A stretch of 49,497 bases of DNA, from the NCBI GenBank assembly GCA_009885085.1, contig VFLK01000013.1:1-49497 (forward strand), in the 5' to 3' direction. The DNA comes from Minisyncoccota bacterium. Lineage in GTDB: Bacteria > Patescibacteriota > Microgenomatia > UBA1400 > PJMF01. Of this stretch, positions 26,274 to 45,787 are shown in pieces (the first letter of the stretch is position 1; each line of letters opens with the position of its first letter). A program made the position numbers and the translations under genes. The notes beneath the pieces are model-generated. The model was not told the DNA's origin and ran no database searches. It saw only the letters and a program-made list of their open reading frames with translations.

Positions 26274-26353
26274 CGCAAAAAATGTTGAGTACTAAATTGC
26301 GCTAAAAAATGTAAAGCACTGGCTAGCGCCAAAAAATGTGGAGTACAAACTAG
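26274..26353. repeat. Three degenerate 26-27 bp tandem repeats in tRNA spacer
   Basis: CGCAAAAAATGTTGAGTACTAAATTG / CGCTAAAAAATGTAAAGCACTGGCTAG / CGCCAAAAAATGTGGAGTACAAACTAG. Confidence 0.7.
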
Positions 26354-26374
26354 CGATAAAATAAAAAAATGAGT

Positions 26375-26447: not shown

Positions 26448-26565
26448 CAAGGTGAATTTCGCAGGAAGAGAGGTTGGTCTGGGCCATTGCAAAGCAAGAG
26501 AAGGTGCCCTGGGGTACAAGGTGAAGAAGGTGAATGGCCATAGCCAGAGAAGGTGCTCTGGGGTA
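26448..26565 (+). repeat. Three degenerate tandem copies of tRNA-linked repeat CAAGGTGAATTGCGAAGCAAGAGAAGGTGCCCTGGGGTAC
   Basis: 26486-26517 is 31/32 identical to the reverse complement of 28893-28924. Confidence 0.8.
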
Positions 26566-26882: not shown

Positions 26883-28193
26883 TTAGAATTCCTTGATTGC
26901 CTTGGCAATTTCTTTGGAACCATTTAGAAAAAGTGGATCTATTGAGTGAGCGTTATTCATGGCTTTTTCAATCCAAGATTGTGATTTACCTTCAGTTGAA
27001 GAAAGTACTTCTAGCTGGGCAATAATATCGTCGATCATAACTTTTCTTGAAATATCTTTTTGTTCAAAAATTTCTCTAATTCTTTCTTCCCATTCTCCCC
27101 ATTCTGCTAAGGTTAAAAGAAATGATCCAGATGTGACTGCATCGTAGGCCATGTCTCCAGAAGGTTTAGTCAAAAATCCATCAGCCCAAGGGAAAGCATA
27201 TTTTATTAGTAACTCATTAGCATCAACGAGTTGGGGATGATAAATAATTCTTAGTTTTGCGGCTTTCTCACTAATTTTAGAAATTATTATTTTGTGTTTT
27301 TTGGCTAGTTCTTTGATAAGTTTTTCAATATCTTGATGTGTGCTCACATAAACAAGCAGCTTGTATTTATTATTTTTTCTAAGCTCTGGAAGGAGTTGTT
27401 CTAGAAGTGCTTCCATCTCATTTTTATTAGTTCCCAAACCCCCGGTGGTAAGACAAAGGTTGATTGATCCATTTCTCCATGGATGTTTTTTCTCTCTGGT
27501 AATAATGACTCTTGGGTCAATTGGAGGTCCAGTAACAATAATTCTATTTGGATCGGCTTCAATATCGTGCTTCGCTGCTTTTTCAAGGAATTCAATTTTA
27601 GTAGCTTCATTAAAAACGCAAAACTTGATATTTTTTTGGTCGGCGTACTTAACAAATTCATCTCTCACATGTGGATCGGTAATTACTTGAAGAATTTTTT
27701 TACCTTGTCCGGCTAGGATGTTGCCGGCCGCAATATGAAAAGATAAAATAGGATGATGGATATTCTCGGTTAAATGTAAAAGTGGGGGAGTAATGCTTTT
27801 TAGAATGGGCATTTTTCCTCTTCCAAAAGTATCGATTAAATCTTTAATTGTTTTGAGAATTGGGTGGCGAGCAATAGTTTTGCCAATTATTTCGGTAAGT
27901 TCGATTGAGTTCCAATTCTTATGAGAAACGTAATTGGTTGGGTCTACGATCCAAGCCTTTTTTGGATCAATTTTCTTACCCCAAATCTGAATTGCAACCC
28001 CAAGCGCCATCGAGTAGTGAGCTCTAGAAAAAACCACATCCTGAATAGTGTCGTCATCTGGGTATCCGTGACTTTTCTTTAAATCCTCTTTGTAACTTGC
28101 AGAAACAGTGATGATTGGAACTTTCGAAGTTTCAAGGAATTTTTTATCTTCTTTGAAAGTTTTGACTAAGTAGGGGTCAAATAGTTCTGGCAT
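26883..28193 (-). CDS. GT-B glycosyltransferase-like (MGDG synthase/UgtP-like)
   Basis: VITDPH, TGPPID, TTGGLG, ADGFLTKPSG, EWE. Confidence 0.55.
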   Translation of the reverse strand: MPELFDPYLVKTFKEDKKFLETSKVPIITVSASYKEDLKKSHGYPDDDTIQDVVFSRAHYSMALGVAIQIWGKKIDPKKAWIVDPTNYVSHKNWNSIELTEIIGKTIARHPILKTIKDLIDTFGRGKMPILKSITPPLLHLTENIHHPILSFHIAAGNILAGQGKKILQVITDPHVRDEFVKYADQKNIKFCVFNEATKIEFLEKAAKHDIEADPNRIIVTGPPIDPRVIITREKKHPWRNGSINLCLTTGGLGTNKNEMEALLEQLLPELRKNNKYKLLVYVSTHQDIEKLIKELAKKHKIIISKISEKAAKLRIIYHPQLVDANELLIKYAFPWADGFLTKPSGDMAYDAVTSGSFLLTLAEWGEWEERIREIFEQKDISRKVMIDDIIAQLEVLSSTEGKSQSWIEKAMNNAHSIDPLFLNGSKEIAKAIKEF

Positions 28194-28696: not shown

Positions 28697-28767
28697 AGGG
28701 CCATAGTTTAACGGTAGAATAGAGGTCTCCAAAACCTTTGATGGGGGTTCGATTCCCTCTGGCCCTG
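28697..28767 (+). tRNA. tRNA-Trp(CCA)
   Basis: AGGGCCA/TGGCCCT, GAGGT-CTCCAAA-ACCTT, GGTTCGATTCC, G73. Confidence 0.95.
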
Positions 28768-28768
28768 C

Positions 28769-28806
28769 AAAATAAAAGAGAACCCGAATGGGTTCTATTT
28801 TATTTT
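28769..28806 (+). terminator. Terminator after tRNA-Trp
   Basis: AAAATAAAA-g-AGAACCC-gaat-GGGTTCT-a-TTTTATTTT. Confidence 0.8.
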
Positions 28807-28831
28807 ATGGGGTCGATAGGAAATTTAACCC

Positions 28832-28938
28832 TTGCGAAGCATAGTTCTGACACCAAGTGCCGTAACGAAGTGAAGGCACCTGGGAAATGCAAGTACCCCA
28901 GGGCACCTTCTCTTGCTTCGCAATTCACCTTGTGAGCC
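28832..28938. repeat. Structured tRNA-linked repeat element
   Basis: TTGCGAAGCA (28832-28841)/TGCTTCGCAA (28914-28923) inverted repeat enclosing a CCAAGTGCC/GGCACCTGG hairpin; right half matches the repeats after tRNA-Thr(TGT). Confidence 0.7.
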
Positions 28939-28973
28939 ATCCAACAGGAAATATAAATAGGTGGCGAATCGTA

Positions 28974-28992
28974 GATTCCTTCTGGCCCTGCA
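28974..28992 (+). repeat. Duplicated tRNA-Trp 3' end (att-like)
   Basis: GATTCCTTCTGGCCCTGCA vs GATTCCCTCTGGCCCTGCA at 28751-28769 (18/19). Confidence 0.85.
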
Positions 28993-29048
28993 TCGAAGAA
29001 TCGAACCTAAAGTTGCTCGAGTGAGCTCGCATGTGTTAAGATAATTGT

Positions 29049-29804
29049 ATGGAAAATCATCACCAACCACAAACACCTCTAGCACCAGAAGACACAGTCT
29101 CTCACTCCAATAAAAATCCATCATTGTCCATGCTTTTGAGTGGAGTGGCTCTGGTAACAGCAATTGTAGCTGGAGGAATTGGATACTATTTGGGTTCAAT
29201 GCAAAAAACTCAAACCGCATTGCCTGAGCAGGAAGTTCAAGTTTCAACTAAGCCTGAAACTAATCAGGTCGCTTGTACTATGGAGGCAAAAATTTGCCCT
29301 GATGGCAGTTCAGTCAGTAGGGGTGGTCCAAATTGTGAATTTGCGGCTTGTCCAAATGAAGAGATTCAATCATCTCCTCTTGAAAGTCAGAAAGTGAAAC
29401 AAGAATATAAGAGTACTCAGTTTACATATAGTTTTGAGCATCCAAAGAGTTGGGTGCCATCTCGGACATCTAACGATGATGGTGAACTCATCATTTTGTC
29501 CGATAATGAAAAAAATACGATGGAAATTAGTGCCGCAAAATTACCAACAGAGGGTTTAGAAAAATTTCTTCAAGATCGAGTTAAAGATTATGAAATCAGT
29601 TCTTTTTCCCAAAATCCTCAATATAAATCCGAAAGTGTTTATAAATTAGGTGGATTTCCAACTAAAGAGATCTCATATCGATCAATGGATGGCATTGGAT
29701 ATGTAGAGTTATTTACTCAAGTGAGAGACGAGTATTTTGTTCGTGTTACAACTCCAGTTGATGAGCTCCACCAGCAAGTCATATCATCATTTGAGCTAAA
29801 ATAG
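29049..29804 (+). CDS. Membrane-anchored PsbP-like protein with CTMEAKICPDGS...CEFAACP mini-domain
   Basis: TM, CPR-typical Cys motif, YSFEHPKSW and C-terminal QVISSFE pattern. Confidence 0.65.
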   Translation: MENHHQPQTPLAPEDTVSHSNKNPSLSMLLSGVALVTAIVAGGIGYYLGSMQKTQTALPEQEVQVSTKPETNQVACTMEAKICPDGSSVSRGGPNCEFAACPNEEIQSSPLESQKVKQEYKSTQFTYSFEHPKSWVPSRTSNDDGELIILSDNEKNTMEISAAKLPTEGLEKFLQDRVKDYEISSFSQNPQYKSESVYKLGGFPTKEISYRSMDGIGYVELFTQVRDEYFVRVTTPVDELHQQVISSFELK

Positions 29805-29834
29805 GTTCGAACATCCTTCACTAGTCCCTGCAAA
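29801..29834 (+). repeat. Cassette-boundary repeat copy 1
   Basis: ATAGGTTCGAACATCCTTCACTAGTCCCTGCAAA; contains the TAG stop of the upstream gene. Confidence 0.85.
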
Positions 29835-29920
29835 ACATCAATTTTTGCCTATAAATCAATCTAAAATTGTTATATTATAGCTCAATCTATTCGTTTCTTT
29901 ATATCTGATAGAATTAAACA

Positions 29921-30493
29921 ATGAAACAAATAATCAGTTCTATTGCGGTAATTTTAACCTTCGCAGCATATGTTCCTTATTATAGAGATATTTTAAAAGG
30001 TAAAACCAAACCACACATTTACAGTTGGTCTTTATGGGGATTACTAACTGTTTTGCTTGTCATTCTACAGATTAGGGGTGGAGCTGGTCCAGCGATATGG
30101 GTGACAGCTTCAGCAGGTCTACTTTGTTTCGGTGTGGTTTTTTTAAGTCTTAAAAATGGCAATAAAAACATAACAACATCTGACACGATAACTGCAATTT
30201 TGTCATTAGTTGCTATTGGTTTTTGGCTTATTGCTGATCAGCCAGTGTTGTCAATAATTTTAGTAATTATTGCAGATGGCTTAGCATTTATTCCTACTGT
30301 TCGTAAATCTTGGTTAGATCCACATTCAGAAACATTATCACTGTATATTACAAATGCTTTGAGGTTTTTTTTGGCCTTAGCAGCTGTTGAGAGATATACT
30401 TTTCTTTCTACCTCATGGATAGTTTTTTGGGCAATTGGAAATGCAATGTTTTCTCTAATGCTCATTCAAAGACGAAGACAATTACAAAGCTAG
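29921..30493 (+). CDS. Six-TM membrane protein (PQ-loop-like)
   Basis: PY.RDIL.GKTKPH..SW..W, PT.RKSW.DP.SE duplication pattern. Confidence 0.65.
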   Translation: MKQIISSIAVILTFAAYVPYYRDILKGKTKPHIYSWSLWGLLTVLLVILQIRGGAGPAIWVTASAGLLCFGVVFLSLKNGNKNITTSDTITAILSLVAIGFWLIADQPVLSIILVIIADGLAFIPTVRKSWLDPHSETLSLYITNALRFFLALAAVERYTFLSTSWIVFWAIGNAMFSLMLIQRRRQLQS

Positions 30494-30573
30494 AATATTT
30501 TCAACCAAATTTTATTAATCAATAATCTATAAGTTTAGACACAGTCTTTTTGTTCTGGTATATAATTGTTCTC

Positions 30574-31044
30574 ATGAAATTAAAAATTCTCACAAAAAAA
30601 GATATCGATCTGATAATTGAGCTAGAGAAACATAGTGCTCCAGAAAAACCTCACTATGCTAGATATGACATAAAAGCTTTGAGCTATATTTTCGAAAATC
30701 CAAATAAATGTGGAGCCTTTGGGATGTTTGATGATAAAAAGTTAATTGGATGGGGAGCGTATAGATCTAATTGGAAAAAAAATAATAAGGAGAGTGAGAT
30801 TTGTGAGGTAAGTTCTATAGTTGTGGATAAAGATTATAGACGAAGTGGTCTTGGAAATACTATTTTGAATAAAATACTAGAAGTTTTAAAACTAAAAAAA
30901 CTTGATAAGGCTTTCTTAACAGTTTCACCACTTAATGTTGGGGCATTAATCTTATATTTGAAAAGAGGATTTCTAATTTACGACTTTAGAAAAGATATTT
31001 ATGGTCCTGGAGCAGACAGAATTTATCTTGAGATAAATCTTTAA
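30574..31044 (+). CDS. GNAT family N-acetyltransferase
   Basis: IVVDKDYRRSGLG, LTV...N..A..LY.KRGF. Confidence 0.88.
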   Translation: MKLKILTKKDIDLIIELEKHSAPEKPHYARYDIKALSYIFENPNKCGAFGMFDDKKLIGWGAYRSNWKKNNKESEICEVSSIVVDKDYRRSGLGNTILNKILEVLKLKKLDKAFLTVSPLNVGALILYLKRGFLIYDFRKDIYGPGADRIYLEINL

Positions 31045-31097
31045 TAAAATCAATCTTCCTATTATAAGCCCAAACCACCCTCCCAACTCGAGGAAAA

Positions 31098-31131
31098 ATA
31101 GGTTTGAACATCCTTCACTAGTCCCTGCAAA
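31098..31131 (+). repeat. Cassette-boundary repeat copy 2
   Basis: ATAGGTTTGAACATCCTTCACTAGTCCCTGCAAA (33/34 to copy 1). Confidence 0.85.
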
Positions 31132-31159
31132 TATCCTACACCTACGATATAATAACCTT

Positions 31160-31789
31160 GTGAAGAAAACTAAAAAAAAGATTTACCCTTGCTTGTTCAG
31201 CGCTTTTTTAATCTTTATAGGTGTAGTTGCGGCCTATCAATATTTTGTTCTTTTAAAGGATGGTCGTGAAACGTATGAGAGTGAAGCAAGGAGAGTCAAT
31301 ACAATGATTGCTAACAACCCCTCTTTTTTTAGTACTACTTTTGATGATATTTTCCCTTTTGCTTTGAATTGTCAGCAGAACAGAGATTAGTGTGTTGCTC
31401 AAACTCGACAAAAATTCGATGCAGTCGGGACTGCTGCTGAAGACTATCCTGTTGATCTTCAACCATCTAACAAGCATCCAATGTACTTTATTAAACTACT
31501 CCCTAATGGAACAATAGCTAAACTATTCTTTTCTGGCGACTTGATTTTAGAGCAGGTAAACACACGAGAAGAAATGAAAGTTATTACCTTACTTCAAGGT
31601 AAAAGAGATACATTATATGGTCCTTACTACGACCAGGAGATAATTGGAGTTGGTAAGACAGTAAACCACGCTTTTTTTGATCCCAAACCAGCATATTTGA
31701 AAGATTTATATGCTCAATTTGAGGCAATTATTCCCTATCATTCAAATTCAGAGATTATTGGCGGAATAGTTTATCTTCATGGAGAGTAA
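31160..31789 (+). pseudogene. Membrane-anchored 209-codon ORF interrupted by one in-frame TAG
   Basis: ORFs 31160-31390 and 31481-31789 are in frame; the 30 intervening codons are open after TAG at 31388-31390. Confidence 0.7.
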
Positions 31790-31823
31790 ATAGGTTCGAA
31801 CATCCTTTACTAGTCCCCGAAAA
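31790..31823 (+). repeat. Cassette-boundary repeat copy 3
   Basis: ATAGGTTCGAACATCCTTTACTAGTCCCCGAAAA (31/34), directly after TAA. Confidence 0.8.
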
Positions 31824-31920
31824 GTATCAAGTTTTTGTTTATACCAAAATCAACATCAACTTTAGCTAATATTAGGAATTTTATTTCTTTTTGATTTAAT
31901 TTCTCTGCTAAAATAGCAGT

Positions 31921-32271
31921 ATGATCATCGATGACGAAAATCAACATAAGCGCAATCAGTCAACAACTTCAGAGATATTTGATACCATACAAAAGCTGAG
32001 AAATGAAATTAGGCCAGAATTAGAATATGTTGCGGGAGCATTAGCAACATACTTGTATTTAGTTGCATTGATTAATCCTGAATTATTACCCATTTATGCT
32101 CAGCCAGTATTTGAAATACTTGGTAAATTACCCTTAAGCAAGTTTTCTCTTATGGCTTCTACTACCATTGCATTTATGGGATCTGTTGATGGCGCAAGAA
32201 GAATTGTTTTAGAATCCCTTCCTTTTTACAAAGCATATTTACAAGTTTTTTTACTGAATAAAATAGAATAA
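31921..32271 (+). CDS. Hypothetical membrane protein
   Basis: ORF with hydrophobic segments; TAAAAT 6 nt before ATG. Confidence 0.5.
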   Translation: MIIDDENQHKRNQSTTSEIFDTIQKLRNEIRPELEYVAGALATYLYLVALINPELLPIYAQPVFEILGKLPLSKFSLMASTTIAFMGSVDGARRIVLESLPFYKAYLQVFLLNKIE

Positions 32272-32361
32272 GGTTTAATTATCTATAGATAATTTGACGA
32301 TAATTCTCCGGTTTTTTTGTTGATGCCAACTTCTTACTAACTATTGTGATAGTATTTATTT

Positions 32362-32880
32362 ATGGAACAATTTTTGGCAATTATTAGAGGTGCTGGAGCA
32401 AGTGGGAAGACCACAATTGCAAAAAAGTTTAGAAATTTTGATAAGAAAGTAGTTTGGTTAAAAGTTGACAATTATAAGGATTTTTTTACAGAAAATTCTT
32501 CATTAGTTGAGCAAAAATATGTGGATGAGTGTGCAGTAGCTACGCTCAAATATCTTTTAGACAGTGGTTTTTCTGTAGTAATGGAGAAAATATTTTTTGA
32601 TCCACAAATTATCCCTTTAGCAGTAGATGAAGCCAACAAAAGACACATCAAAGTTGAAGTTTTTCAAATAAGATGTGCCTTAGAGGTTTTGCAAGAAAGA
32701 GATAAAAATAGACTGGGTATTAAAGAAGGTTGTCGCAAGCCTTTGGGAGATGATGTTATAAAAAATATATACGATCAATTGGAAGCGACCTATTATCCAA
32801 AGGCAATAGAATTGAATACAGATAAGTTAAGCGTTGATGAATCTGTTCAGAAAATTAAAAATAGTTTAGGATTAAATTAG
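32362..32880 (+). CDS. P-loop kinase-like (AAA_33) protein
   Basis: IIRGAGASGKTTIA Walker A, R...R lid. Confidence 0.8.
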   Translation: MEQFLAIIRGAGASGKTTIAKKFRNFDKKVVWLKVDNYKDFFTENSSLVEQKYVDECAVATLKYLLDSGFSVVMEKIFFDPQIIPLAVDEANKRHIKVEVFQIRCALEVLQERDKNRLGIKEGCRKPLGDDVIKNIYDQLEATYYPKAIELNTDKLSVDESVQKIKNSLGLN

Positions 32881-32946
32881 TTAAAATAGGTTAAAATACT
32901 TTTTCCGTTTATATTTTATCAAAAAATGTGATGATATGATTAAATT

Positions 32947-33867
32947 ATGTATGAGAGAGCACCACAATTTTCGACTTCTCCCAAAGATGTTTTTTCAAAG
33001 TTAAAAGATTCTGAGCTCAAATCAAAAGAGCCAAGTATTGTTGATTTAAGCTGGCTTAAGGATGCAAATTCGCTAACAGACGAAGAAATTATAAAGGACG
33101 TATTTAGAAATAATGAGTTGGCGGCTGAGATTTTTTTTGAACGAAGGGCAATTTTGCAGATACAAGTTTTTCAAGATCCGGAGGATCAAAAAAATGTTTA
33201 TATTGTTACCTCAAGAGAGAAAAACCTTGTAACGGTTATAAAGACAGATAAGCAAAATCTTCATGCCCAAATAGAAATATCTGCCAAAGAATTATTTGTC
33301 TCTAGCCCCTCAATGGAAAAGGCCATAGTTGTATCATCGTTATTTCCGAGTAATAACAAATCTTTAAATTTTGCAATGCTCGCATATTTGCGTATTCCAG
33401 ATAAAAATGGTCAGAAAAAAAGTGCTTTTGGTTTTGATTTACTAACGAACACTTTGCATTTTGATCAAATAGCTGATCAAGATACTCTGACTTCTTTGTG
33501 TCATGAACTTGGTCATATTTGGGCAGAAGCTCTAGGTATTGATAAGCAAACTTTGGAAAAAATTCAAGCTCTAAAAAATGGCTATGATGTTAATACACAA
33601 GATTGGGAAGTGATGAGCAAAGGAGTTTCTGAAGTCCTATTTTCTGAAAGAATGGCGAATATTATTGGAAAAATCATTGCTGAAAAAATTCAGAAGAGCA
33701 ACGTTTTTTCAGATAATATTACGAATCTTTTTTCTAGAGCATGGAGAGACAAACAAGAAGCTAAATATGATGAGCATTATTTAATACCAGCTATTGCCAA
33801 ATTTCCTGAGCTGACAGGTAAAATAAAGTCCTATTTTGCAAGTCGTTCAAATAGAACGAGAAATTGA
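32947..33867 (+). CDS. Hypothetical zincin-like protein (HExxH)
   Basis: LCHELGHIW followed by downstream SERMAN Glu. Confidence 0.55.
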   Translation: MYERAPQFSTSPKDVFSKLKDSELKSKEPSIVDLSWLKDANSLTDEEIIKDVFRNNELAAEIFFERRAILQIQVFQDPEDQKNVYIVTSREKNLVTVIKTDKQNLHAQIEISAKELFVSSPSMEKAIVVSSLFPSNNKSLNFAMLAYLRIPDKNGQKKSAFGFDLLTNTLHFDQIADQDTLTSLCHELGHIWAEALGIDKQTLEKIQALKNGYDVNTQDWEVMSKGVSEVLFSERMANIIGKIIAEKIQKSNVFSDNITNLFSRAWRDKQEAKYDEHYLIPAIAKFPELTGKIKSYFASRSNRTRN

Positions 33868-33910
33868 TTTTATTGTCAGAGGATTAAATGATCTTAAAAC
33901 TCTGGGATAA

Positions 33911-33944
33911 ACAGGTCAAAGCGTCCTTCACTAGGTTCAGTAAA
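33911..33944 (+). repeat. Cassette-boundary repeat copy 4 (degenerate)
   Basis: ACAGGTCAAAGCGTCCTTCACTAGGTTCAGTAAA (23/34; TCCTTCACTAG intact). Confidence 0.6.
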
Positions 33945-33967
33945 AGCAAAAAAGTAGTATTAAATCA

Positions 33968-34004
33968 TTGACAAAATAATGATATAGTAATAAAATATTG
34001 CTAT
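33968..34004 (+). promoter_or_regulatory. TA operon promoter with operator palindrome
   Basis: TTGACA-17-TAAAAT; ATAGTAATA-aaa-TATTGCTAT inverted repeat overlapping the -10. Confidence 0.7.
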
Positions 34005-34005
34005 T

Positions 34006-34263
34006 ATGACTAAAGTTCAACTTTCTCTTACCACACAAGAAGCTAGTCTTTTAGAAAATTATGGTTCTCAATTTGGCTATAATTTACCAAAAACAATTCG
34101 TTTCTTCATAAGTAAAGCATCAGAAGAAATCTTAAAAAATAAGATTCCTACTTTTTCTATGAGCGAGGAAACAGAAAAGAATGGTTTAGAAGCTTTAGAA
34201 GAACATCGTTTGGGTGAGACAGCAAAGGTTGATGATGTAGCAGACTTCTTTAGTTCTCTATGA
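34006..34263 (+). CDS. Putative antitoxin (RHH/RelB-like)
   Basis: N-terminal beta strand + helices, acidic C-terminus; ATGA overlap with downstream toxin. Confidence 0.7.
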   Translation: MTKVQLSLTTQEASLLENYGSQFGYNLPKTIRFFISKASEEILKNKIPTFSMSEETEKNGLEALEEHRLGETAKVDDVADFFSSL

Positions 34264-34520
34264 AGATTTATTTTTCCAAAAACTTCGCTAAGAAATCAAG
34301 CAAATTAATTAGCAAAAATCCTCAAATAAAACAAAAGCTGATTAAGCAAATTGCTTTGTTTAAGACAAATCAGCAACATCCTTCATTAAAACTTCATAAA
34401 CTTAAGGGTCAGAGATCAAGTCAGTTTGCTATTTGGATTGAAGGTGATCTGAGAGCGCTATGTATTCAAGACAATGACGAATATGTTTTCTTTGATTTAG
34501 TTAAGCATGATGAATATTAA
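34260..34520 (+). CDS. RelE/YafQ-family toxin
   Basis: F...F.K, HPSLKLHKLKG, I.GDLR, D...HDEY. Confidence 0.82.
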   Translation: MKIYFSKNFAKKSSKLISKNPQIKQKLIKQIALFKTNQQHPSLKLHKLKGQRSSQFAIWIEGDLRALCIQDNDEYVFFDLVKHDEY

Positions 34521-34583
34521 GTATTGAAACGAATAGGTTTCAGTATCGTCAGCTTGTTCCATTTTTTCTGTTAGAATTATCAT

Positions 34584-35162
34584 ATGAATAAACATGTTAA
34601 AGTTGCCGATTTAGTAAAAGAAGCTTACGAAAATTCTCAAGAATGGTTTGGACAATGGATGTGGAAGAATCATGTTCCAGTTGTTGCAAAAGAATCTGAA
34701 GAGTTGGCCGAGCGGTTTGGAGCAAATGCTGACTTAGCTGTAGCCGGAGCGTGGCTTCATGACTTTGGCGATGCGTTTGTTCATCGTAATTCAAAAGAAC
34801 ACAATGAAATTTCAAAAGTAAAATCAAAAGAGGTTTTGGAGAAAGCTGGATATAGTTTGGAAGAGATTGAAGAAGTTTTGAAAGTCGTAATTGCTCCGCA
34901 TTCCTGTAGAGATGGTTTTTTGCCAACTACTTTGGAAGGAAAAGTTCTGTCTACTGCAGATGCGCTAGCTCATATAACTACAGATTTTTTCGTTCATTTT
35001 ACTTGGATGCATCTTCCTGAAAACAAATCTTTAGCAGAATATAGGGAATGGGTAGCAAAAAAAATCGAACATGATTTTCAAATCAAGATTTTTTTTGAAG
35101 AAGTAAGAGCAGAGGTTAAAAATAGAGTAGAGGTTCTGAAAGAAGTATTTGTTGTCAAATAA
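34584..35162 (+). CDS. HD-domain protein
   Basis: NHV, WLHDFGD, H, APHS, STADALAH. Confidence 0.8.
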   Translation: MNKHVKVADLVKEAYENSQEWFGQWMWKNHVPVVAKESEELAERFGANADLAVAGAWLHDFGDAFVHRNSKEHNEISKVKSKEVLEKAGYSLEEIEEVLKVVIAPHSCRDGFLPTTLEGKVLSTADALAHITTDFFVHFTWMHLPENKSLAEYREWVAKKIEHDFQIKIFFEEVRAEVKNRVEVLKEVFVVK

Positions 35163-35187
35163 GTATAAATATTAATATTATAAAAAT

Positions 35188-35490
35188 ATGAATAATTTTA
35201 AAGTTTTCTTGCTAGTAATTTTTTCGATTGTTGTTACTGGTTGCACTCAAAAAGATGTTGATTCTAGTTTTAAAATAACAGACGGAGCCAGTTTAGAAGA
35301 AAAAAGTGGAGAATTCAGTTTGACAGGAAAAATTAGCAAGCCTGGCGATCAATATTTAATTACTCAGGCCTCTGGAGAAGTTCAAGAGCTTGAAAGCTAT
35401 ACGGTCAAGCTTGAAAACTATGTTGGGAAAACAGCTACCGTCGTCGGAGAGTTCAGCGGAAATACGCTGTTTATTACGGAAATAAAGTAA
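35188..35490 (+). CDS. Lipoprotein, OB-fold-like
   Basis: Lipobox VVTGC; L..YVGK.ATV.G.......ITEI. Confidence 0.6.
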   Translation: MNNFKVFLLVIFSIVVTGCTQKDVDSSFKITDGASLEEKSGEFSLTGKISKPGDQYLITQASGEVQELESYTVKLENYVGKTATVVGEFSGNTLFITEIK

Positions 35491-35503: not shown

Positions 35504-36253
35504 TTATAATTTGTATGGAACCTCGAGCTTGAATGCTTGATTGTGAACCCGTTTAGCAACTTTTTCTACAATTTCTGGAGAAATATTTTCAATATTTATT
35601 TCTGAAGCTTCTTTGTTATTATCAATTATTTCCTTCAGAACCAAATCGGCTGCTTCATAACCAAAGCCTAGTTCGTTTTCGTCAGTTTGGTCTTTCCAGA
35701 GTCCAGCCGATGGTTTTTTGGTTAAAATTTCATTAGGAATATCAAAATATTGAGCTAATTGGCGAATCTGGGTTTTGTACAGGTGAACAATTGGCTCTAT
35801 GTCAGAGGCTTCATCTCCAAATCTAGTGAAATATCCTAAATAATGTTCTGATTTATTTTCAGTTCCAATTACAAGACCATTTTTTTCTTTAGCAATATCG
35901 TATGTAATTATCATTCTTACACGAGCCATAATATTTCCTTTGCGCATTATTTCATCTTGAGAAATATTGAGAGAACTACAAATCCCGTCAACGCTACTTT
36001 TAATATTTTTGATAACAATATTTTCTTTTGGAATCTGGTTCCATTCGCAGATTGATAAAGCATCTGTCATGTCTTGATCGCCGTAAGGCATTAAGACTGG
36101 ATAAATATTATTAGGAAGAATTGCTCTAGTGATCAAAGTTAAAGAAATGGCGGAATCAATCCCACCTGAAACTGCAATGATGGCGGAGTTAATGTTATTT
36201 TTGGTGAAAGTTCCTTTGAGGAATTTTTGTATTTTTTCAGCTTCTACTTGCAT
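35504..36253 (-). CDS. nadE: NH3-dependent NAD+ synthetase
   Basis: SGGIDS, GNIMARVRM, GTENKSE, GYFTRFGD, LYKTQ, PSAGLW..QTDE. Confidence 0.95.
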   Translation of the reverse strand: MQVEAEKIQKFLKGTFTKNNINSAIIAVSGGIDSAISLTLITRAILPNNIYPVLMPYGDQDMTDALSICEWNQIPKENIVIKNIKSSVDGICSSLNISQDEIMRKGNIMARVRMIITYDIAKEKNGLVIGTENKSEHYLGYFTRFGDEASDIEPIVHLYKTQIRQLAQYFDIPNEILTKKPSAGLWKDQTDENELGFGYEAADLVLKEIIDNNKEASEINIENISPEIVEKVAKRVHNQAFKLEVPYKL

Positions 36254-36260
36254 AATGTCA

Positions 36261-36809
36261 TTAATAAAGATTGTTTTCTTTAATAAAATTAATAATTTCT
36301 GGAGTGGTAAGTAATTCGAGGGATTTTCCCTCTTTGACCATTTTTTTTATCTGGGTTGAAGAAACATCAATATTTTCTACATGCTCAAGTTTTTTCATGT
36401 TTGGAAGCAGATTTACTAGAGGAAAGCCAGTTCTTGGATACACCAAAACTTGAAAGTTTTTAAGAATATCTTCGTACCTGTGCCATTTTTTAAAATCGGC
36501 CAACTGGTCGGATCCAATTATCCAAACAAACGTATCGTTTGGAAATAGTTTTTGAAAATATTCTAGAGTTTCAATCGAGTAGCTCGTTGAATTTTTATTT
36601 AATTCGTAAGCACAGATAGAAAAGTTTTTGAATGTTTTTAACATTGAAAAACGATCAGTTGCAGAGGAAATATCTTTTTGATATGGGTGCTGGGCGCATG
36701 GAACAAACCAAACGACATCGCAATATTCTTTTGCAATTATTGTATTAGCAACCGTTAAATGCCCGTTGTGCGGCGGATCAAAACTTCCTCCAAAAAGACC
36801 GATTTTCAT
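36261..36809 (-). CDS. nadD: Nicotinate-nucleotide adenylyltransferase
   Basis: GGSFDPPHNGH, IIGSD, W, VSST; adjacent to nadE. Confidence 0.93.
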   Translation of the reverse strand: MKIGLFGGSFDPPHNGHLTVANTIIAKEYCDVVWFVPCAQHPYQKDISSATDRFSMLKTFKNFSICAYELNKNSTSYSIETLEYFQKLFPNDTFVWIIGSDQLADFKKWHRYEDILKNFQVLVYPRTGFPLVNLLPNMKKLEHVENIDVSSTQIKKMVKEGKSLELLTTPEIINFIKENNLY

Positions 36810-36893
36810 TCCGTAATTATACATCATGGGTTAGAATATTTTTTATCTGTTAGAATAAAAACATAAAATACCTAAGGCAAATTGTAAATTAAT

Positions 36894-37721
36894 ATGAGTA
36901 TCCTATTTTTTCAGTTTTATCGTTGGATTTTTTGTAGACCATTTTTTTATAAATTTAATAAACATTTATTTAAGTTGTCATTGCGCGGCTTGGGAGTTTT
37001 AAATTCTGATATTGCTAGCGCCACGGGTGAAGATTATCTATTAGAGAAACTTTCCAAAAAATGGAACCCAAAAATAATCGTTGATGTAGGCTCTAATACT
37101 GATGCATATGGATACAAATTTTTTACTGATGCAAAAATATTTGCTATCGAGCCTCATCCGCTGACGTACAAGAAATTGAGAGAGATGTTTATTGGAATTA
37201 CCCGTATCAAGAAATGCAATTTGGCTTTGAGTAACAACAATGGGAATGCAAAATTGTGGGATTTTGCCGAAGAATCTGAGATTAAAAAAACTCAACCAAC
37301 TTCACAGCTTTCTTCCTTGGACAAAAATGTAATCAATAAAATTCATGGCCAAAAAGCTCAAGCATTTTTAGTAAAAAAGATGACTTTGGATTCTTTTGCC
37401 ACAAAGTATAGAATAGACAAAATTGACTTCTTGAAAATTGATACCGAGGGGCATGAACTTCAGGTACTCCAAGGAGCAAAGAAGCTATTGAAAGATAATA
37501 AAATAGATCTAATTCAGTTTGAGTTTAATGAAATGAATGTATTGTCGGGGAGTTTTTTGAGAAATTTTATGGATTTGCTGCCTGGATTTAAATTTTTCCG
37601 TTTAATGCCTAGAGGGTTATATTCGCTAAATGACTATAAGCCACTTACTCATGAAATATTTGGTTTTCAAAATATTTTAGCCGTTCGAATTAATAAATTA
37701 GACTTAATTAAAAATATATAA
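36894..37721 (+). CDS. FkbM family methyltransferase
   Basis: DVGSN, IEPHP, TLD, LKIDTEGHE..VL.GA, IQFEF. Confidence 0.88.
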   Translation: MSILFFQFYRWIFCRPFFYKFNKHLFKLSLRGLGVLNSDIASATGEDYLLEKLSKKWNPKIIVDVGSNTDAYGYKFFTDAKIFAIEPHPLTYKKLREMFIGITRIKKCNLALSNNNGNAKLWDFAEESEIKKTQPTSQLSSLDKNVINKIHGQKAQAFLVKKMTLDSFATKYRIDKIDFLKIDTEGHELQVLQGAKKLLKDNKIDLIQFEFNEMNVLSGSFLRNFMDLLPGFKFFRLMPRGLYSLNDYKPLTHEIFGFQNILAVRINKLDLIKNI

Positions 37722-37763
37722 TTTTTATTTAATTCGTAGGCGCAGATTCTTCCAATAGCAATA

Positions 37764-38423
37764 TTATTTTTTATCTAGCACAATTCTGGCGCCTGAAAAG
37801 TTAGCAACTTCACCGCTTGTTGATCTTATTTGGAGTGCGTAAGTGTTATTTCCGTTAAATAGCTTAAATTTAGGCGAACTTTTCCATGTTGTTGTACTAG
37901 TTGAGTGTGAAATTTCAGTAATCGCCATAATAGACCCGGTGGTTTTATTCACAAGTCTTGCCCAGGATTCGCCGCCAATGACCGACAATCCTACTTCAAA
38001 AACTGCATCAATATCAGTAGGGTAGTCAGCGCTATTTAAATTAACTTCGACTCCTGAATCTGTCCAATCATTATTTTTTGTATTTGCTGAACCAATATAT
38101 ATAATTTGTTTTTGAAAAATTGACGCAGCTGAATTTTTGTTAACGCTGGCAGGTAGGTTAGAATCGTCTTCTAATTTTTCTATTCTATTGAGCAAAGCTG
38201 AAGAGCTTGCTGAAAGATCTTTCATGTGATTCTCAAGGTCTACAATTATCAAGCTTGATTCATCCTGCGTGTTTACCACCGGCTTTTTGTTTTCAGTATT
38301 TACAATAATTTCTGGAAATTTTTTGTTGTTCTCGTCGATACGAAGGTAAAGGACAAATAGTGTCGACAATCCACATAAAAAAAAGAACAAAACGAAGGTG
38401 ATTATTTTTTCAAACTTTGACAT
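37764..38423 (-). CDS. Membrane-anchored hypothetical protein
   Basis: N-terminal TM, coiled coil, beta-rich C-terminal domain. Confidence 0.6.
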   Translation of the reverse strand: MSKFEKIITFVLFFFLCGLSTLFVLYLRIDENNKKFPEIIVNTENKKPVVNTQDESSLIIVDLENHMKDLSASSSALLNRIEKLEDDSNLPASVNKNSAASIFQKQIIYIGSANTKNNDWTDSGVEVNLNSADYPTDIDAVFEVGLSVIGGESWARLVNKTTGSIMAITEISHSTSTTTWKSSPKFKLFNGNNTYALQIRSTSGEVANFSGARIVLDKK

Positions 38424-38726
38424 AATTTAACTATCTTAATCAAAATCATATCATTTTTTTAGATTGAGAATGTCTTTAAAATGTTATTAAATCGGTCTTT
38501 TCTCTCTGGTGTCATAATATTCATTCTGATTGCGAAAACTGTTTTCCAAAGCATTGTTCTTAGTAAATATAAATTCCTCAAATCTTTGCAGCCACGTTTG
38601 CCAGAATGACTTCTCCATTAATTAGATATTCGAGTTCAGATTCTAAGCAAGTGACTAGGTAATCATAAAAAGAATTGTCAGATCCTCGTTCATATAAGCC
38701 ACAGCGTAGTAAATATTTGACATAAT

Positions 38727-39596
38727 TTAAAGTGATGTTAAAACGATTCCAATTATTGTAAGCAAAATTCCAAATGCCTGAACTTTGGTAATCTTTTCTT
38801 TGAGAAAAACTACCGCCATTAATATGGTTACTACAGAGAGGGCGGAGGCTATTGGCGAGACTAATATCAAGTCTCCAAATTCCAGCCCGTAATTCATGCT
38901 TGCAACTGCTGCTGCCTCTAGAACACCGACCAGAACAGTAACTAAAAGTATTTTTTTAGTTGCTTTTTCAATCTTAAGATTCTTCTTGGTGGAAAATGAG
39001 AAAATTATTAATGTGATAATTGCTCCAAATTTTACATATAGAGATGTTGGTAGCCAGCCAATCTTTTCAGAAATAAATTCACTTAAATTCCAAAAGATTC
39101 CAAAGAAAACTGATGCTAGCAGAGCCTCTTTAACACCAGCCAACAACTTAAACTCTTTATTTTTAATATCATTAAAATTAACTGAAACAAGAAAAACTCC
39201 TGATAATATTAGAAAAACTGAGAATAATTGAAAAGCAGTTAGACTCTGACCTGAAAAGATGATAGCGATCAGCATCGCGATAATTACATTTAAGTTGATA
39301 GTTGCTGATACAACTGAGACATTTCCAATTTCAAATGCTTTGTAGAAATATAAGTACGCAGTAGCATAGAATATTGATGAAATAAAAATAATTATTCCTA
39401 ATATTAGGGAAACTTGAGTATTGATTCCAAATAATGGAATCAATAAAATTGTAAAGATTATTCCAGCTAGTTGAGACCAGAAGAATGCCTTAAGATGACC
39501 TATCTGGTCAGAAGAAAGATTTGCAAAGAAATCAGAAATTCCCCAGCCAAACATGGCTCCTAAACCTGAAAGTACGCTAATTAGTGTTTTATCCAT
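38727..39596 (-). CDS. DMT/EamA family transporter
   Basis: 10 TM in two repeats, WG..DF, G.VSVVS, FLKEKI. Confidence 0.85.
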   Translation of the reverse strand: MDKTLISVLSGLGAMFGWGISDFFANLSSDQIGHLKAFFWSQLAGIIFTILLIPLFGINTQVSLILGIIIFISSIFYATAYLYFYKAFEIGNVSVVSATINLNVIIAMLIAIIFSGQSLTAFQLFSVFLILSGVFLVSVNFNDIKNKEFKLLAGVKEALLASVFFGIFWNLSEFISEKIGWLPTSLYVKFGAIITLIIFSFSTKKNLKIEKATKKILLVTVLVGVLEAAAVASMNYGLEFGDLILVSPIASALSVVTILMAVVFLKEKITKVQAFGILLTIIGIVLTSL

Positions 39597-39607
39597 AATG
39601 TTATCTA

Positions 39608-40831
39608 TTATGTTAGTTTTTTTGCCAAACTTAAAATTCCAATTTGCGATAGTGCGGCTAACAAAACAACTACAGAAACAGCAGTCTTGCTATCAAAATT
39701 ATAGATCAAAAATAAGTACAAAATTGTAGTAATTGTACGTCCCAGATTAATATAAATCTCATGGTCAAATAATAGTCGAAAGCTAGTGGTTATTCCTCCG
39801 TCACTATTTTGTTCAACCTGGCTATAGAAAATTGGAAAGAAAACAAACCAATAAAGTTTGTCAAAAATTATCATTGCTACCAGGTAAATCAAGATGCTTA
39901 GATAGTTGAAAGACACAAGCATAAAAATAGAACTGAGTATCAGTGGTACTAGTCCAAAAAGAAGTATTTTTGTTCGATTACTTGAAGCATTTTTTAATCT
40001 TCCTAATATATATAGAGATACACCAGCAACTACACTAATCAAGCTCATTATCGTTCCGAGTACTCCTTCGTTTCCAATGTAAGTAATTATTAATGCTCCA
40101 GGTAAAGCCAGTGCGAGAGCAAACTGCATGCTACCTAAGAAGGTAAATGCTCGAAACAATTTCCATTGTTTTGGAGGGTTAGTTACCCAGAGTTTAGTGA
40201 TGATAGGGTTTTTAGTACTGTGTTTTTTTACTATTAATCCGGCTAATACAAATATACTTATGCCAAACATTGCTAATAATCGATAAGCAGAAATTTTATC
40301 CCATCCCCATGAAGGTGAGAGCGCAATGAGCCAGCCAATTATTAATGGAGTGACTGTTCCAGTTATTGAACCCATTGATCCTGTTAAACCTGAAATATAA
40401 TCTCTCTGATCATTAGCCACTTCAGCGGTATATAGAAAACTTCTAGTTCCCCAATACAAGCCTAATGGAATTCCATAAAATAAACCAAAAATAAAAATGC
40501 TAGTAAAATTAATTACTGGCAAGAAAAATAAGATTAGTACCATTGAACCAAGGCCAATTAGTCCAGTTACAGAAACGTCGCGCAAAGAATATTTTCTGAG
40601 TAACTTTGCTGCTAAAATTAAGGCAAGTGGCATAGTAATGTACATGCCAAGAGCAAATACAGCTGGTGATTCAATTTTGCCAGATTGTTGAACTATGAAA
40701 GCCAACATAAAAATCCAAGTGCTGACGTCAGCTAATTGGTAAAGCAGGATCGACCAAGTTAAGGCTCTAGCTTTTTGGGACAAACTCTTAAAGTGAGCTA
40801 TTTCGGCTAATAAAATATTTTTGAGAAACAT
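39608..40831 (-). CDS. MFS-type transporter
   Basis: ~12 TM, GLYW...R.Y..G pattern. Confidence 0.7.
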   Translation of the reverse strand: MFLKNILLAEIAHFKSLSQKARALTWSILLYQLADVSTWIFMLAFIVQQSGKIESPAVFALGMYITMPLALILAAKLLRKYSLRDVSVTGLIGLGSMVLILFFLPVINFTSIFIFGLFYGIPLGLYWGTRSFLYTAEVANDQRDYISGLTGSMGSITGTVTPLIIGWLIALSPSWGWDKISAYRLLAMFGISIFVLAGLIVKKHSTKNPIITKLWVTNPPKQWKLFRAFTFLGSMQFALALALPGALIITYIGNEGVLGTIMSLISVVAGVSLYILGRLKNASSNRTKILLFGLVPLILSSIFMLVSFNYLSILIYLVAMIIFDKLYWFVFFPIFYSQVEQNSDGGITTSFRLLFDHEIYINLGRTITTILYLFLIYNFDSKTAVSVVVLLAALSQIGILSLAKKLT

Positions 40832-40915
40832 GGAAAGTATTATATATGGTTTTCGAAATATTTATGATATCATTTCGATAATTAAAAAACGTTCTGCCCA
40901 GAATAGAGATTTTTA

Positions 40916-42166: not shown

Positions 42167-42212
42167 TCTATTTATAGTTTATGAGTTTATTCATTCGTGT
42201 TAACATATCGAA

Positions 42213-43121
42213 ATGGATAAAGTTATAAAACTAAAAGTTATTTCATTGAATTTGTGGACGGGTGGATTATTATTTGATGAGATTCTTCAATTTCTGAAGG
42301 GTGAAAATCCAGATATACTATTACTCCAAGAAGTTTATAACAGCGACGATTTGTCATTGAAAAGAAATTTCCGATCTTTTTCTATTTTGAGGGACGAACT
42401 AAATTTTTCATATTCACATTTTGCGCCTGCTTTTTTGGAATCAATTAAAAGCTCTCAAGCAGTGAACGACTTATCTGCTGTAGCACCCGTTACGAATATC
42501 CCTAACCAAAAAATAGAGCAGGGTAATGCAATATTTAGTAAGTTTCCGTTGGAAGCACAAGAGACCAAATTTTATGATATTCCATTTGGTGATCGCATCG
42601 ATGAGTTTGCTTATTACTCAGTTACTCCAAGAAATTTGCAACATGTAATTCTTGATTTAAATCCTGCTGATAAAAAAGCTGACGGTCAAGCTTTGCTTGA
42701 TGGGAAAAGCACTTCCATAGAAGGTAATCAAAAACTTCATGTGCTTAACACACAGGGAATTTGGGGTACACATGGCAATGATACCGATCGAAGATTAAAA
42801 ATGGGTGATTTTATTGCTAATGAAGTTTCCACAAGTACTCAATCTGAAAAATATCCTGTGCTTTTGGCAGGCGATTTTAATTTAAATCCTTATACAAAGA
42901 CAGTTGAGAAAATTGAAAATATTTTGGAAAGTGTTTTTAAATCAAGTTTGAAAACGAGTTTTAATCTTAAGCGAAAGAACCTAGAAAAAGATCCTGGATA
43001 TGCAACTTCGGCTGTTGATATGATGCTTGTTTCCAGCGATATTAAAGTTCTAAAAAAAAGTTGTCCGAATGTCGACGTCTCGGATCACTTGCCTCTGGTA
43101 GTAGAGTTGGAGGTTGGTTAA
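42213..43121 (+). CDS. Endonuclease/exonuclease/phosphatase family protein
   Basis: SLN, LLQEV, GNAIFSKFP, AGDFN, VD, SDHLP. Confidence 0.88.
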   Translation: MDKVIKLKVISLNLWTGGLLFDEILQFLKGENPDILLLQEVYNSDDLSLKRNFRSFSILRDELNFSYSHFAPAFLESIKSSQAVNDLSAVAPVTNIPNQKIEQGNAIFSKFPLEAQETKFYDIPFGDRIDEFAYYSVTPRNLQHVILDLNPADKKADGQALLDGKSTSIEGNQKLHVLNTQGIWGTHGNDTDRRLKMGDFIANEVSTSTQSEKYPVLLAGDFNLNPYTKTVEKIENILESVFKSSLKTSFNLKRKNLEKDPGYATSAVDMMLVSSDIKVLKKSCPNVDVSDHLPLVVELEVG

Positions 43122-43829: not shown

Positions 43830-43841
43830 AATAATTTTGTT

Positions 43842-44489: not shown

Positions 44490-44577
44490 GTTCCAAATTA
44501 TAGACTATTGTGTTTGCCAATCAAGGGGGTAGGTAGTATAATTGCAATCTGATTGAAATTTAACTGGAACAATTATT

Positions 44578-44790: not shown

Positions 44791-44812
44791 ATTTATTTTC
44801 TACAAAACTAAT

Positions 44813-45778: not shown

Positions 45779-45787
45779 TTATAAAGT

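Follow-up and report, generated by a model that had tools for sequence, protein, structure and literature searches.

How do small, unrelated genes come to be lined up on one strand behind a tRNA gene, with the same short sequence recurring between them? The question is raised by a locus in a 49,497-nucleotide stretch of DNA (the window, by which the whole stretch analysed is meant) from a Minisyncoccota bacterium (contig VFLK01000013.1 of assembly GCA_009885085.1), in which the gene for tRNA-Trp is followed by eleven open reading frames (ORFs), all on the + strand, and by copies of a sharply bounded 35-bp repeat, AAATAGGTTCNAACATCCTTCACTAGTCCCTGCAA, here called R. The explanation to which we give a probability of about 0.58 is that this is a tandem island of non-autonomous cassettes, built at the 3' end of tRNA-Trp by site-specific recombination, with a large serine recombinase (LSR) specific for tRNA-Trp as the most likely enzyme. 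The 3' end of the tRNA, GGTTCGATTCCCTCTGGCCCTGCA, anchors the array and is read here as a putative attB-type (B) half-site.

A first-pass annotation of the window had placed a 34-nt form of the repeat at 29801, 31098 and 31790, and these copies were recovered with 0, 1 and 3 mismatches, respectively, in a search in which 0 of 100 shuffles gave a match. A further copy that it proposed at 33911 is a decayed repeat which is not significant alone (nhmmer E ~1-5); its position is that at which a close relative, G002 (G000 being the genome of the window and other G numbers related genomes), has a good repeat ahead of a homologous block made up of a toxin-antitoxin (TA) pair and an HD-domain gene. 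The fainter traces suspected at ~32886 and ~34533 correspond to AATAGGTT at 32885 and 34532, both immediately after stop codons; this sequence occurs six times in the window, always on the + strand, and five of the six occurrences are at the ends of array genes. By pattern search and by nhmmer, R is confined to this locus in the 978,695-bp assembly, and the 8 nt at its 3' end, CCCTGCAA, have tRNA-Trp as their sole match among the 36 tRNAs found in the genome. No T-run or terminator shape was found in R, nor any dyad in the 35-bp block, in keeping with the first-pass remark that the repeat has no attC symmetry; R also has no notable fold on either strand (z -0.59, -0.41, -0.46 and +0.93), and therefore looks like a duplex-DNA site. 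No Rfam family matched R. A dif-like reading was tried and rejected, as the loose dif pattern gave 148 uninformative matches and no dif could be named; a phage attP origin was likewise rejected, since viral contigs contained no exact 19-mer of R, and six exact 16-mer matches that had none of the rest of the repeat are ascribed to chance.

Among relatives, the core pattern with up to 3 mismatches was found in 17 of 101 genomes, including that of the window, and the reversed pattern, used as a control, in none. The matches in each genome are clustered on one contig and one strand, the exception being one isolated copy that G008 has on a second contig and that is also the sole repeat at nhmmer E < 1e-3 that is not on the strand of the tRNA. 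The largest array, in G004, has up to 12 exact-pattern copies, and 16 by nhmmer (E < 1e-3) over ~19 kb. When the class was sampled evenly, a match was found in 8 of 401 genomes, and outside the family there are single 3-mismatch matches only. In 13 of 16 relatives the repeat cluster has a tRNA-Trp gene upstream of it on the same strand; for the remaining three (G001, G008 and G041) the contig breaks off within the array or shortly before it. Metagenome contigs scanned for an exact 23-mer added eight loci, all of them one-strand arrays, with tRNA-Trp upstream in four and a stretch that begins within the array in the other four. The flanks of the array are conserved as well: upstream are an NTP-transferase gene, tRNAs, L33 and a gene for a protein of 436 amino acids (aa), and downstream is a block homologous to window positions 43182-49357.

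The consensus of 70 unique copies is AAATA-GGTTCNAACATCCTTCACTAGTCCCTGCA-A (block -5 to +30), in which conservation is 71-100% throughout, core position 6 (C 28, G 23, T 16, A 3) being the one exception; it falls to background right outside the block, where the flanks are random. The core proteins of the R-bearing genomes are just 52-80% identical to those of the window genome, yet R is conserved, and the block must therefore be under selection or be constantly re-spread. Two optional extensions of the repeat were also noted, one at its 5' side (ATTATAAGCCCAAAACCACCTCCCAACTCGAGGAAAAATA, with a small CCTC/GAGG hairpin; window 31059-31095) and one at its 3' side, a leader (AAACATCAATTTTTGCCTATAAATCAATCTAAA; window 29835-29870). 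They occur beside different genes in several genomes, and tend to flank one same cassette.

R copies delimit 71 units of 70-3193 bp (median 861 bp); one ORF is present in 36 of them, two in 22 and three in 9, with 97 ORFs on the array strand versus 18 on the opposite one. These counts bear out the proposal of an array of small cassettes with the tRNA-Trp 3' end as its anchor and a conserved site between its units. In 23 of 76 repeats the upstream ORF stops at a TAG inside the block, and TA pairs make up the most frequent cargo (12 ORFs each for antitoxins and toxins in the loci compared). Fic, GNAT, HD and HEPN proteins, zeta-like kinases, P450, a WbsX-type glycosyltransferase, RecQ and isochorismatase are also encoded, and the cargo is thus of the defence and stress type (TA pairs, Fic, HEPN, GNAT, zeta-like kinases).

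The gene content downstream of tRNA-Trp in relatives had been named in advance as the test of the cassette model, and it does differ, with homology that breaks at the repeat. Content between the conserved flanks varies among species of one genus, and the near-complete genomes G003 and G005 of the same genus have tRNA-Trp and zero repeats. Blocks of blastn similarity are cassette-sized and stop at the outer edges of two repeats, as between G008 and G022 (89% over 668 bp, ends at -6 and 0), G008 and G042 (85%, ends at 0 and 0) and G001 and G022 (ends at 0 and -1); of the 95 left and 95 right ends, 40 and 20, respectively, are within 10 bp of a block edge. Cassettes have been exchanged between genera: matching cassettes of different genera have 85-92% nucleotide identity, the TA pairs of G002 and G022 have 90-92% protein identity versus 56% for a core protein, the membrane protein encoded in the window has a counterpart in G035 at 84% identity versus 52% for a core protein, and the TA cassette of the window sits between two repeats in G008, G022 and G042 also. 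The starts of cassettes fall into a few leader classes, one with CCTATAAT and one with TTGACA. In other genomes these classes are also found behind the tRNA, which makes the junction at the tRNA equivalent to those at R.

The order of cassettes agrees in part with the first-pass expectation that repeat identity falls with distance from the tRNA and that the oldest cassettes are distal. Identity does fall in the window (53, 51, 44 and 7 bits) and in G004 (rho -0.80), but the trend is reversed in G020, G042 and G035, and the pooled correlation is slight (rho -0.24, p 0.056). The distal TA and HD block of the window has core-like identity to that of G002 (74% nucleotide, 79% amino acid) while the tRNA-proximal cassettes differ, which indicates that the old cassettes are distal in the window; the array of G004 agrees, but the rule is not general.

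No recombinase was found by Pfam in or beside the arrays, among 20 larger array ORFs of relatives and 10 of the 11 array ORFs of the window, and the first-pass statement that the locus has no integrase therefore holds. A recombinase does occupy the same site in relatives. In G049, tRNA-Trp is directly followed by a gene on the opposite strand, with its 3' end running into the tRNA, that encodes an LSR of 576 aa with Resolvase, Recombinase and Zn-ribbon domains; its element ends ~6.1 kb further on in a copy of R, beyond which ordinary R cassettes follow, and a direct repeat, CCCTGCAAA, is present at both junctions of the element (checked in G049 only). Across 140 family genomes this protein has 19 matches at E <= 1e-60, of which just three, in G508, G549 and G536, are 57-60% identical to it. 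This Trp clade is accordingly present in 4 of 140 genomes, and all four genes lie directly 3' of tRNA-Trp on the opposite strand; of the three contigs other than that of G049, one contains the whole tRNA and two begin within its 3' part. The end of the element is visible only in G049 and in G536, the sole contigs long enough, and in G536 it is again a copy of R, after ~8.5 kb. The next relatives of the enzyme (<=41% identity) abut other tRNAs in the same layout, namely tRNA-Ser, -Pro, -Asn, -Met (contig C31 of G000) and -His (G022); these proteins therefore constitute a tRNA-targeting serine integrase family with one clade specific for tRNA-Trp. No direct repeat of at least 9 nt was found at the LSR elements of other tRNAs in the sequence examined. 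The window genome has two LSRs, one encoded on C31 by a gene that runs into tRNA-Met and one on C4 beside a tyrosine recombinase of 373 aa. LSR counts are higher in the array genomes G004 (5), G035 (8) and G042 (4) than in the array-less G003 and G005 (2 each), which is suggestive only; no correlation with arrays was found for the C31-type LSR.

The geometry of the two sites also resembles that of serine integrase sites. The tRNA end has GGTTCGA, 10 nt and CCCTGCA, and R has GGTTCNA, 15 nt and CCCTGCA, which sets the first motif 5 bp farther out. Passages of a study of the LI/A118 integrase describe a zinc-ribbon domain that binds a 9-bp motif at positions 16-24 of the attP half-site, the same motif 5 bp nearer to the centre (positions 11-19) of an attB that is ~10 bp shorter, and tolerance of substitutions at positions 18 and 19 (PMC3783163). 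If the crossover is set at the CC of TCCCTG (core 24-25), the GGTTCNAAC of R occupies positions 24-16, with the hypervariable base at 19, and in the same register, which is good to ~1 base, the GGTTCGATT of the tRNA occupies positions 19-11. By analogy, we infer that R relates to the tRNA end as an attP half-site does to an attB half-site.

In the window the tRNA gene is followed by element X, a 224-bp non-coding unit (Table 1) in which lie the terminator hairpin of the tRNA (28779-28796), a repeat rich in GC and, at 28974-28992 and preceded by AAATAGGT, the 18/19 copy of the tRNA-Trp 3' end to which the first-pass annotation had already drawn attention. Like R, element X matched no Rfam family. 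Element X varies within the source population: one contig of the public run X1 does not have it, 28757 being joined to 28981 with 223 bp skipped and 12 shared letters. Copies of it are found after the tRNA in G002 and after R repeats in G004 (five) and G001 (two), all of them bounded by CCCTGCA. Beyond element X lies an inverted T-arm-like motif (28993-29007), a candidate B' half-site, which forms with the tRNA end a 39-bp imperfect palindrome whose outer 10 nt match at 10 of 10 positions; this matches an attB in size and shape. The inverted motif was also found five times behind R copies, with its end exactly 15 nt past TGCA every time, and the forward motif, taken as a control, gave three occurrences, at other distances. 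The R junctions that have the inverted motif thus look like canonical attR sites (P-B'), and most cassette starts have no copy of it at the expected distance.

A mechanism consistent with these observations may be proposed. A cassette consists of one to three co-oriented genes followed by R, and each new cassette would enter at the tRNA end, so that the tRNA stays intact and the R of the cassette comes to lie ahead of the earlier content. The LSR would be carried by an autonomous element of 6-8.5 kb that uses the same two ends, and would act on the cassettes in trans. The tRNA 3' end would serve as the B half-site and R as the P half-site, both with GGTTCNA and a crossover-proximal CCCTGCA, and strand exchange would take place around the CC of TCCCTG. 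What the junctions conserve is limited to the left half-site and ~6 bp on the right side of that point; if only these are needed, the tRNA junction might be used repeatedly. A bolder version is possible, to which we nevertheless give somewhat less than even odds, namely that in these CPR-like bacteria integron-like gene capture has arisen from other parts: a tRNA landing site, an LSR acting in trans, and single-gene cassettes with one attP-type half-site that doubles as a stop codon. If half-sites were recognised, the universal T-loop of tRNAs serving as the motif of the zinc-ribbon domain and the acceptor end giving specificity, there would be no limit to the reuse of the junction, and sister recombinases at the Met, His, Ser, Pro and Asn tRNAs would explain the mini-elements behind a fifth of the tRNA genes of the genome.

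Several points weigh against cassette insertion by the Trp-specific LSR. Canonical serine integrases recombine attP only with attB, and the reuse of the tRNA junction with a varying right half is an assumption. The right arms of the four LSR elements have no mirror copy of the motif, and the 5-bp relation is one observation on one site family. The window genome has no Trp-clade LSR (its best match, at 38%, is the one at tRNA-Met), so that its array must be mobilised in trans or be currently frozen; the clade was not found in G004, with the largest array, and among 13 array-bearing genomes checked it is present in just one, G049. Arrays of the same species in different samples are colinear and 99.6-99.9% identical, and movement must therefore be rare. 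No circle, excised form or joint at any R was found in four public runs, where the short assembled contigs make this result say nothing either way. The sole polymorphism, that of element X, is between 19-nt direct repeats and could be due to slippage or homologous deletion, and since the longer tRNA copy of element X begins in the T-loop, this element may use another crossover point or another enzyme.

The first-pass annotation had favoured an integron-like system, and in its present form this reading has a tyrosine recombinase, either a phage-type integrase or an Xer-like enzyme, acting in trans on the tRNA end as attI and on R as the analogue of attC; we consider it unlikely. It accords with the classical role of tRNA 3' ends as targets of tyrosine integrases, as set out in parts of a study of Prochlorococcus (10.1101/2020.12.28.424599), and with the layout of element X and seven other mini-elements in tRNA flanks, whose 14-21-nt tRNA copies starting from the T-loop are usual for such enzymes. 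Tyrosine recombinases are present in nearly every genome (PF00589 matches in 60 of 61), among them two Xer-like ones, but this pair is equally present in array-less genomes, scores 104 and 80 bits against a cut-off of 265 with the integron integrase model TIGR02249 in the window genome, and across the 61 genomes no tyrosine recombinase with a clean array-specific pattern emerged. The window genome has three PF00589 matches, none of them on the array contig near the locus, and no tyrosine recombinase was found in or next to any array. A third kind, of 371-378 aa, occurs in G000, G022, G035 and G083, three of which bear arrays, but in G022 it is part of a 6.7-kb element located at tRNA-His, and none was found in G004, G001, G006, G008, G020, G028 or G084. 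Nor does R itself fit, with no hairpin or attC-like symmetry and with 7-9 nt shared with the tRNA end, too little for the tRNA to be rebuilt after a crossover in the T-loop. The integron frame is not supported, and the recombinase that occupies this site in relatives is an LSR. Natural transformation followed by homologous recombination, with repeats and tRNA end as homology anchors and no dedicated recombinase, would account for homology blocks that stop at the outer repeat edges, for the lack of a cognate recombinase in most array genomes and for a polymorphism between direct repeats. Such anchors, however, need no particular sequence, yet a sharp-edged 35 bp with one free position is kept across genera whose core identity is 52-58%; neither the fixed 5-bp offset relative to the tRNA motif nor the inverted motif's fixed 15-nt spacing would be explained, and the LSR element uses the same two ends. 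We regard this route, too, as improbable.

It is also rather improbable that the array is debris of successive complete LSR elements, each trimmed to its last gene or genes and its right end, with no independent movement of cassettes. LSR elements do end in R, and in G035 an 85-aa C-terminal LSR remnant lies right after tRNA-Trp, with a repeat ~170 bp later. Yet no LSR fragment was found by tblastn behind any R in the array loci examined, which argues that the cassettes are not simply trimmed LSR elements; the same single cassettes sit between two repeats in several genera, and LSR elements of 6-8.5 kb have no internal R, versus one per ~0.9 kb in arrays. There is very little to be said for R as an RNA-level or expression signal at gene ends, such as a terminator, a processing site or a stop-codon context, with the variable content reflecting ordinary island turnover. 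R does lie at gene 3' ends, is co-oriented with the genes and provides their stop codon in about a third of its copies, but it has neither a stable fold nor a T-run, is found nowhere else in a genome with hundreds of gene ends, is tied to one tRNA across genera and bounds the blocks that are exchanged.

Among known systems, the closest analogue of the array appears to be the composite island that staphylococcal cassette chromosome (SCC) elements form, in miniature. As described in portions of two reports, SCC and SCCmec likewise insert at a single position within the 3' end of a housekeeping gene that is conserved, depend on enzymes of the LSR type (Ccr in SCC; here the LSR is the candidate), have short direct repeats and stack in tandem, and many units have no recombinase genes (pseudo-SCC) and are marked by repeats alone (PMC7029136; PMC12648241). 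The array shares with them a fixed 3'-end gene site with repeats at the borders of its units and LSR genes in some units (4 of 140 genomes), but the target is here a tRNA gene rather than rlmH/orfX, the units are of ~0.9 kb with one to three genes rather than of tens of kb, the repeat is a 35-bp putative attP-type half-site that often holds a stop codon, and the hosts are uncultured bacteria with small genomes (~1 Mb). The G049-type LSR is also not a Ccr enzyme, scoring 52, 46 and 37 bits with the CcrA, CcrB and CcrC models, far below their cut-offs of 700-900. Ccr enzymes are reportedly relaxed in their choice of site, in work ascribed to Misiura in 2013.

Functionally, the array seems to resemble a sedentary chromosomal integron, with tight one-directional arrays of mostly single-gene cassettes, a 3' site that can hold a stop codon, frequent TA pairs, insertion by a fixed anchor, and arrays that are stable within species and turn over between species. 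Of the components of integrons, co-oriented cassettes with a 3' site are present, but there is no IntI and no attC (imperfect palindromes of 57-141 bp folding as hairpins); the anchor is a tRNA gene, the TA cassettes at least have their own conserved promoter, and the candidate enzyme is a serine and not a tyrosine recombinase. The tycheposons of Prochlorococcus, according to sections of the same study, also form islands seeded at tRNAs, in which successive integrations push older elements inward and partial tRNAs separate the units, but the elements screened there each have an integrase, of the tyrosine kind in a figure legend, and, by our own reading of the legend to a gene network, also carry replication genes (10.1101/2020.12.28.424599). 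The units of the present array have no recombinase, and their separators are not true partial tRNAs, R being tRNA-like only at its two ends with 5 extra bases between; the own integrase and true tRNA copies of a classical tRNA island are thus both missing. With the sites of the integrases of A118 (LI), Bxb1 and phiC31, as passages of the LI study present them, the locus shares a 39-bp palindromic putative attB, a longer attP-type half-site, a 5-bp shift of the motif and one tolerant base (PMC3783163). The 5-bp-shifted motif and an attB of ~40 bp with inverted ends are thus found, but not the mirror arm of attP. Known enzymes of this kind integrate one phage once, and their products are inert without a directionality factor, whereas here the junction is seemingly reused and most of the substrates are tiny and integrase-less.

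Literature searches found no earlier description of such arrays among the titles and abstracts listed. To our knowledge, small-genome uncultured bacteria are thought to carry few classical mobile elements, and how they gain or swap accessory genes is poorly understood; the locus is a defined and widely shared place for such exchange, and the 35-bp sequence is a marker with which such arrays can be found in any assembly. If serine recombination is indeed at work, the integron principle would have been invented independently a second time, and the locus would offer a serine integrase that naturally reuses its target and has short, well-defined sites, with a bearing on the control of integrase directionality and on integrase-based genome engineering.

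The features of the locus are listed in Table 1. The gene kinds assigned at first pass agree with the ORF list and with Pfam, weakly in the case of the PsbP-like protein, and the remaining ORFs have no family. A claim that most of the genes carry their own -10 box did not survive, since promoter-like sites are not enriched (24 found versus 25.6 +/- 6.2 in shuffles), although the promoter-like sequence ahead of the TA pair is conserved elsewhere. The stop codon of the cassette 1 gene, TAG, falls within R1. The ORF of cassette 3 is probably a pseudogene; its in-frame TAG had no variant in four public runs. The HD gene, which has no recognisable repeat in the window, terminates at a repeat in G004. 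After the array and ahead of the conserved downstream block, the window has at 35504-43121 nadE, nadD, a gene for an FkbM-type methyltransferase and several more genes; these are present in G001 and G008 but not in G003 and G004, and the variable region therefore reaches beyond the last recognisable repeat.

Table 1. Features of the tRNA-Trp locus, in window coordinates
Feature	Position	Strand	Remarks
Conserved 436-aa protein	26883-28193	-	No Pfam or NCBIfam family above cut-offs; weak DUF6938 match only
tRNA-Trp (anticodon cca)	28697..28768	+	ARAGORN; Rfam tRNA 66.2 bits
Element X, 224-bp non-coding unit	28769..28992	+	CCCTGCA on both sides
Inverted T-arm-like motif TCGAAGAATCGAACC	28993..29007	+	Putative B' half-site; follows tRNA-like copy 28974-28992
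Cassette 1 gene, 251 aa, weakly PsbP-like	29049..29804	+	PsbP_2 E 2e-5, below Pfam cut-off
Repeat R1	29799..29834	+	Conserved block AAATAGGTTCGAACATCCTTCACTAGTCCCTGCAA; 0 mismatches; 53 bits
Cassette 2	29835..31095	+	3' extension/promoter-like leader (29835-29870), two genes, 5' extension of next repeat (31059-31095)
190-aa membrane protein (cassette 2)	29921-30493	+	No family; six transmembrane segments at first pass
GNAT acetyltransferase (cassette 2)	30574-31044	+	Pfam
Repeat R2	31096..31131	+	1 mismatch; 51 bits
Cassette 3 gene	31160..31789	+	In-frame TAG at 31388-31390; 209 aa if read through
Repeat R3	31788..31823	+	3 mismatches; 44 bits
Cassette 4 genes	31921..33867	+	Three ORFs
116-aa hypothetical protein (cassette 4)	31921-32271	+	
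Zeta-toxin/AAA_33-like P-loop kinase (cassette 4)	32362-32880	+	Pfam
Trace AATAGGTT in cassette 4	32885-32892	+	
306-aa HExxH protein (cassette 4)	32947-33867	+	
Decayed repeat	33909..33942	+	23/34; 60% identity over 48 nt; 7 bits
TA cassette	33968..34520	+	Repeat trace after it, 34532-34539
Promoter-like TTGACA-17-TAAAAT ahead of TA pair	33968-33996	+	Conserved in TA cassettes of other genomes
Antitoxin, 85 aa	34006-34263	+	
YafQ/ParE-like toxin	34260-34520	+	Pfam
HD-domain protein	34584-35162	+	Pfam; no recognisable repeat
Lipoprotein	35188-35490	+	No recognisable repeat

Upstream of tRNA-Trp is a cluster of tRNA-Thr/Tyr/Thr and L33, followed by the conserved minus-strand gene for the 436-aa protein, which adjoins tRNA-Trp in nearly all related loci examined and stands at the place where an integron would keep intI. 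An AlphaFold model of this protein (predicted local distance difference test score, pLDDT, 79) has MGD1 and MurG as its best fold matches, and predicts a GT-B glycosyltransferase fold of the MGD1/MurG type, by which its candidacy as a hidden integrase was ruled out. Within the tRNA cluster, between tRNA-Tyr and tRNA-Thr, there are three copies of a 27-bp unit (CAAAAAATGTNGAGTAC...) at window 26276-26361. The tRNA-Trp genes of one genus are of two alleles (G000, G002 and G004 versus G003, G006 and G007) with differences in the D and T arms and in the anticodon stem, which suggest that the whole tRNA gene may have been replaced, beyond its 3' end alone.

The 6.7-kb element mentioned above encodes both a tyrosine recombinase of 371-373 aa and an LSR, and is present in G000 (C4), G035 (C4, 6554-13248 of the extracted locus), G022 (C17, 4203-10779 of the extracted locus) and G083 (C60). 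Its proteins are 53-100% identical between two genera (93-100% for six of seven shared genes), compared with ~55% for the core, and in G022 its LSR gene runs into tRNA-His. No Y1 (HUH) transposases were found in G003, G004 and G005, the three genomes of the genus searched, a set that leaves out the window genome.

Other tRNA genes of the window genome are also accompanied by small elements. Downstream of six more tRNAs, at a distance of 110-250 nt, the 3' end of the tRNA is repeated exactly over 14-21 nt (C22:4902-5100, C24:34796-35000, C28:4494-4700, C47:14178-14400, C38:18155 for tRNA-Asp and C41:1146 for tRNA-Leu). Those copies that were read (Cys, Ile, Ser, Ala, Asp and Trp) start at T-loop position 57, and in four of the six loci (Cys, Ile, Ser and Ala) a common body of ~60 nt ends in TTGAGCMTGACGAGGGT just ahead of the tRNA-specific copy. 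These make up a second family of miniature elements at tRNA 3' ends, for which Rfam gave no match. The GC-rich repeat contained in element X (~30-65 nt, core ...GCAAGAGAAGGTGCCCTGGGGTAC) is found at 10 sites of the genome, on contigs C38, C7, C14, C47, C28 and C6 and in the window (26486-26517 and 26542-26565 on the + strand, 28893-28924 on the - strand). Seven of the 10 sites are 22-198 bp 3' of a tRNA gene (Trp, Thr twice, Asp, Glu, Ala and Arg), where <1% per copy would be expected by position. In the flank of tRNA-Asp, antisense to the tRNA and within a GC-rich mini-element, there is a match to the AdoCbl-II riboswitch (C38:18045-18143 of G000; Rfam 41.7 bits, gathering cut-off 36.5).

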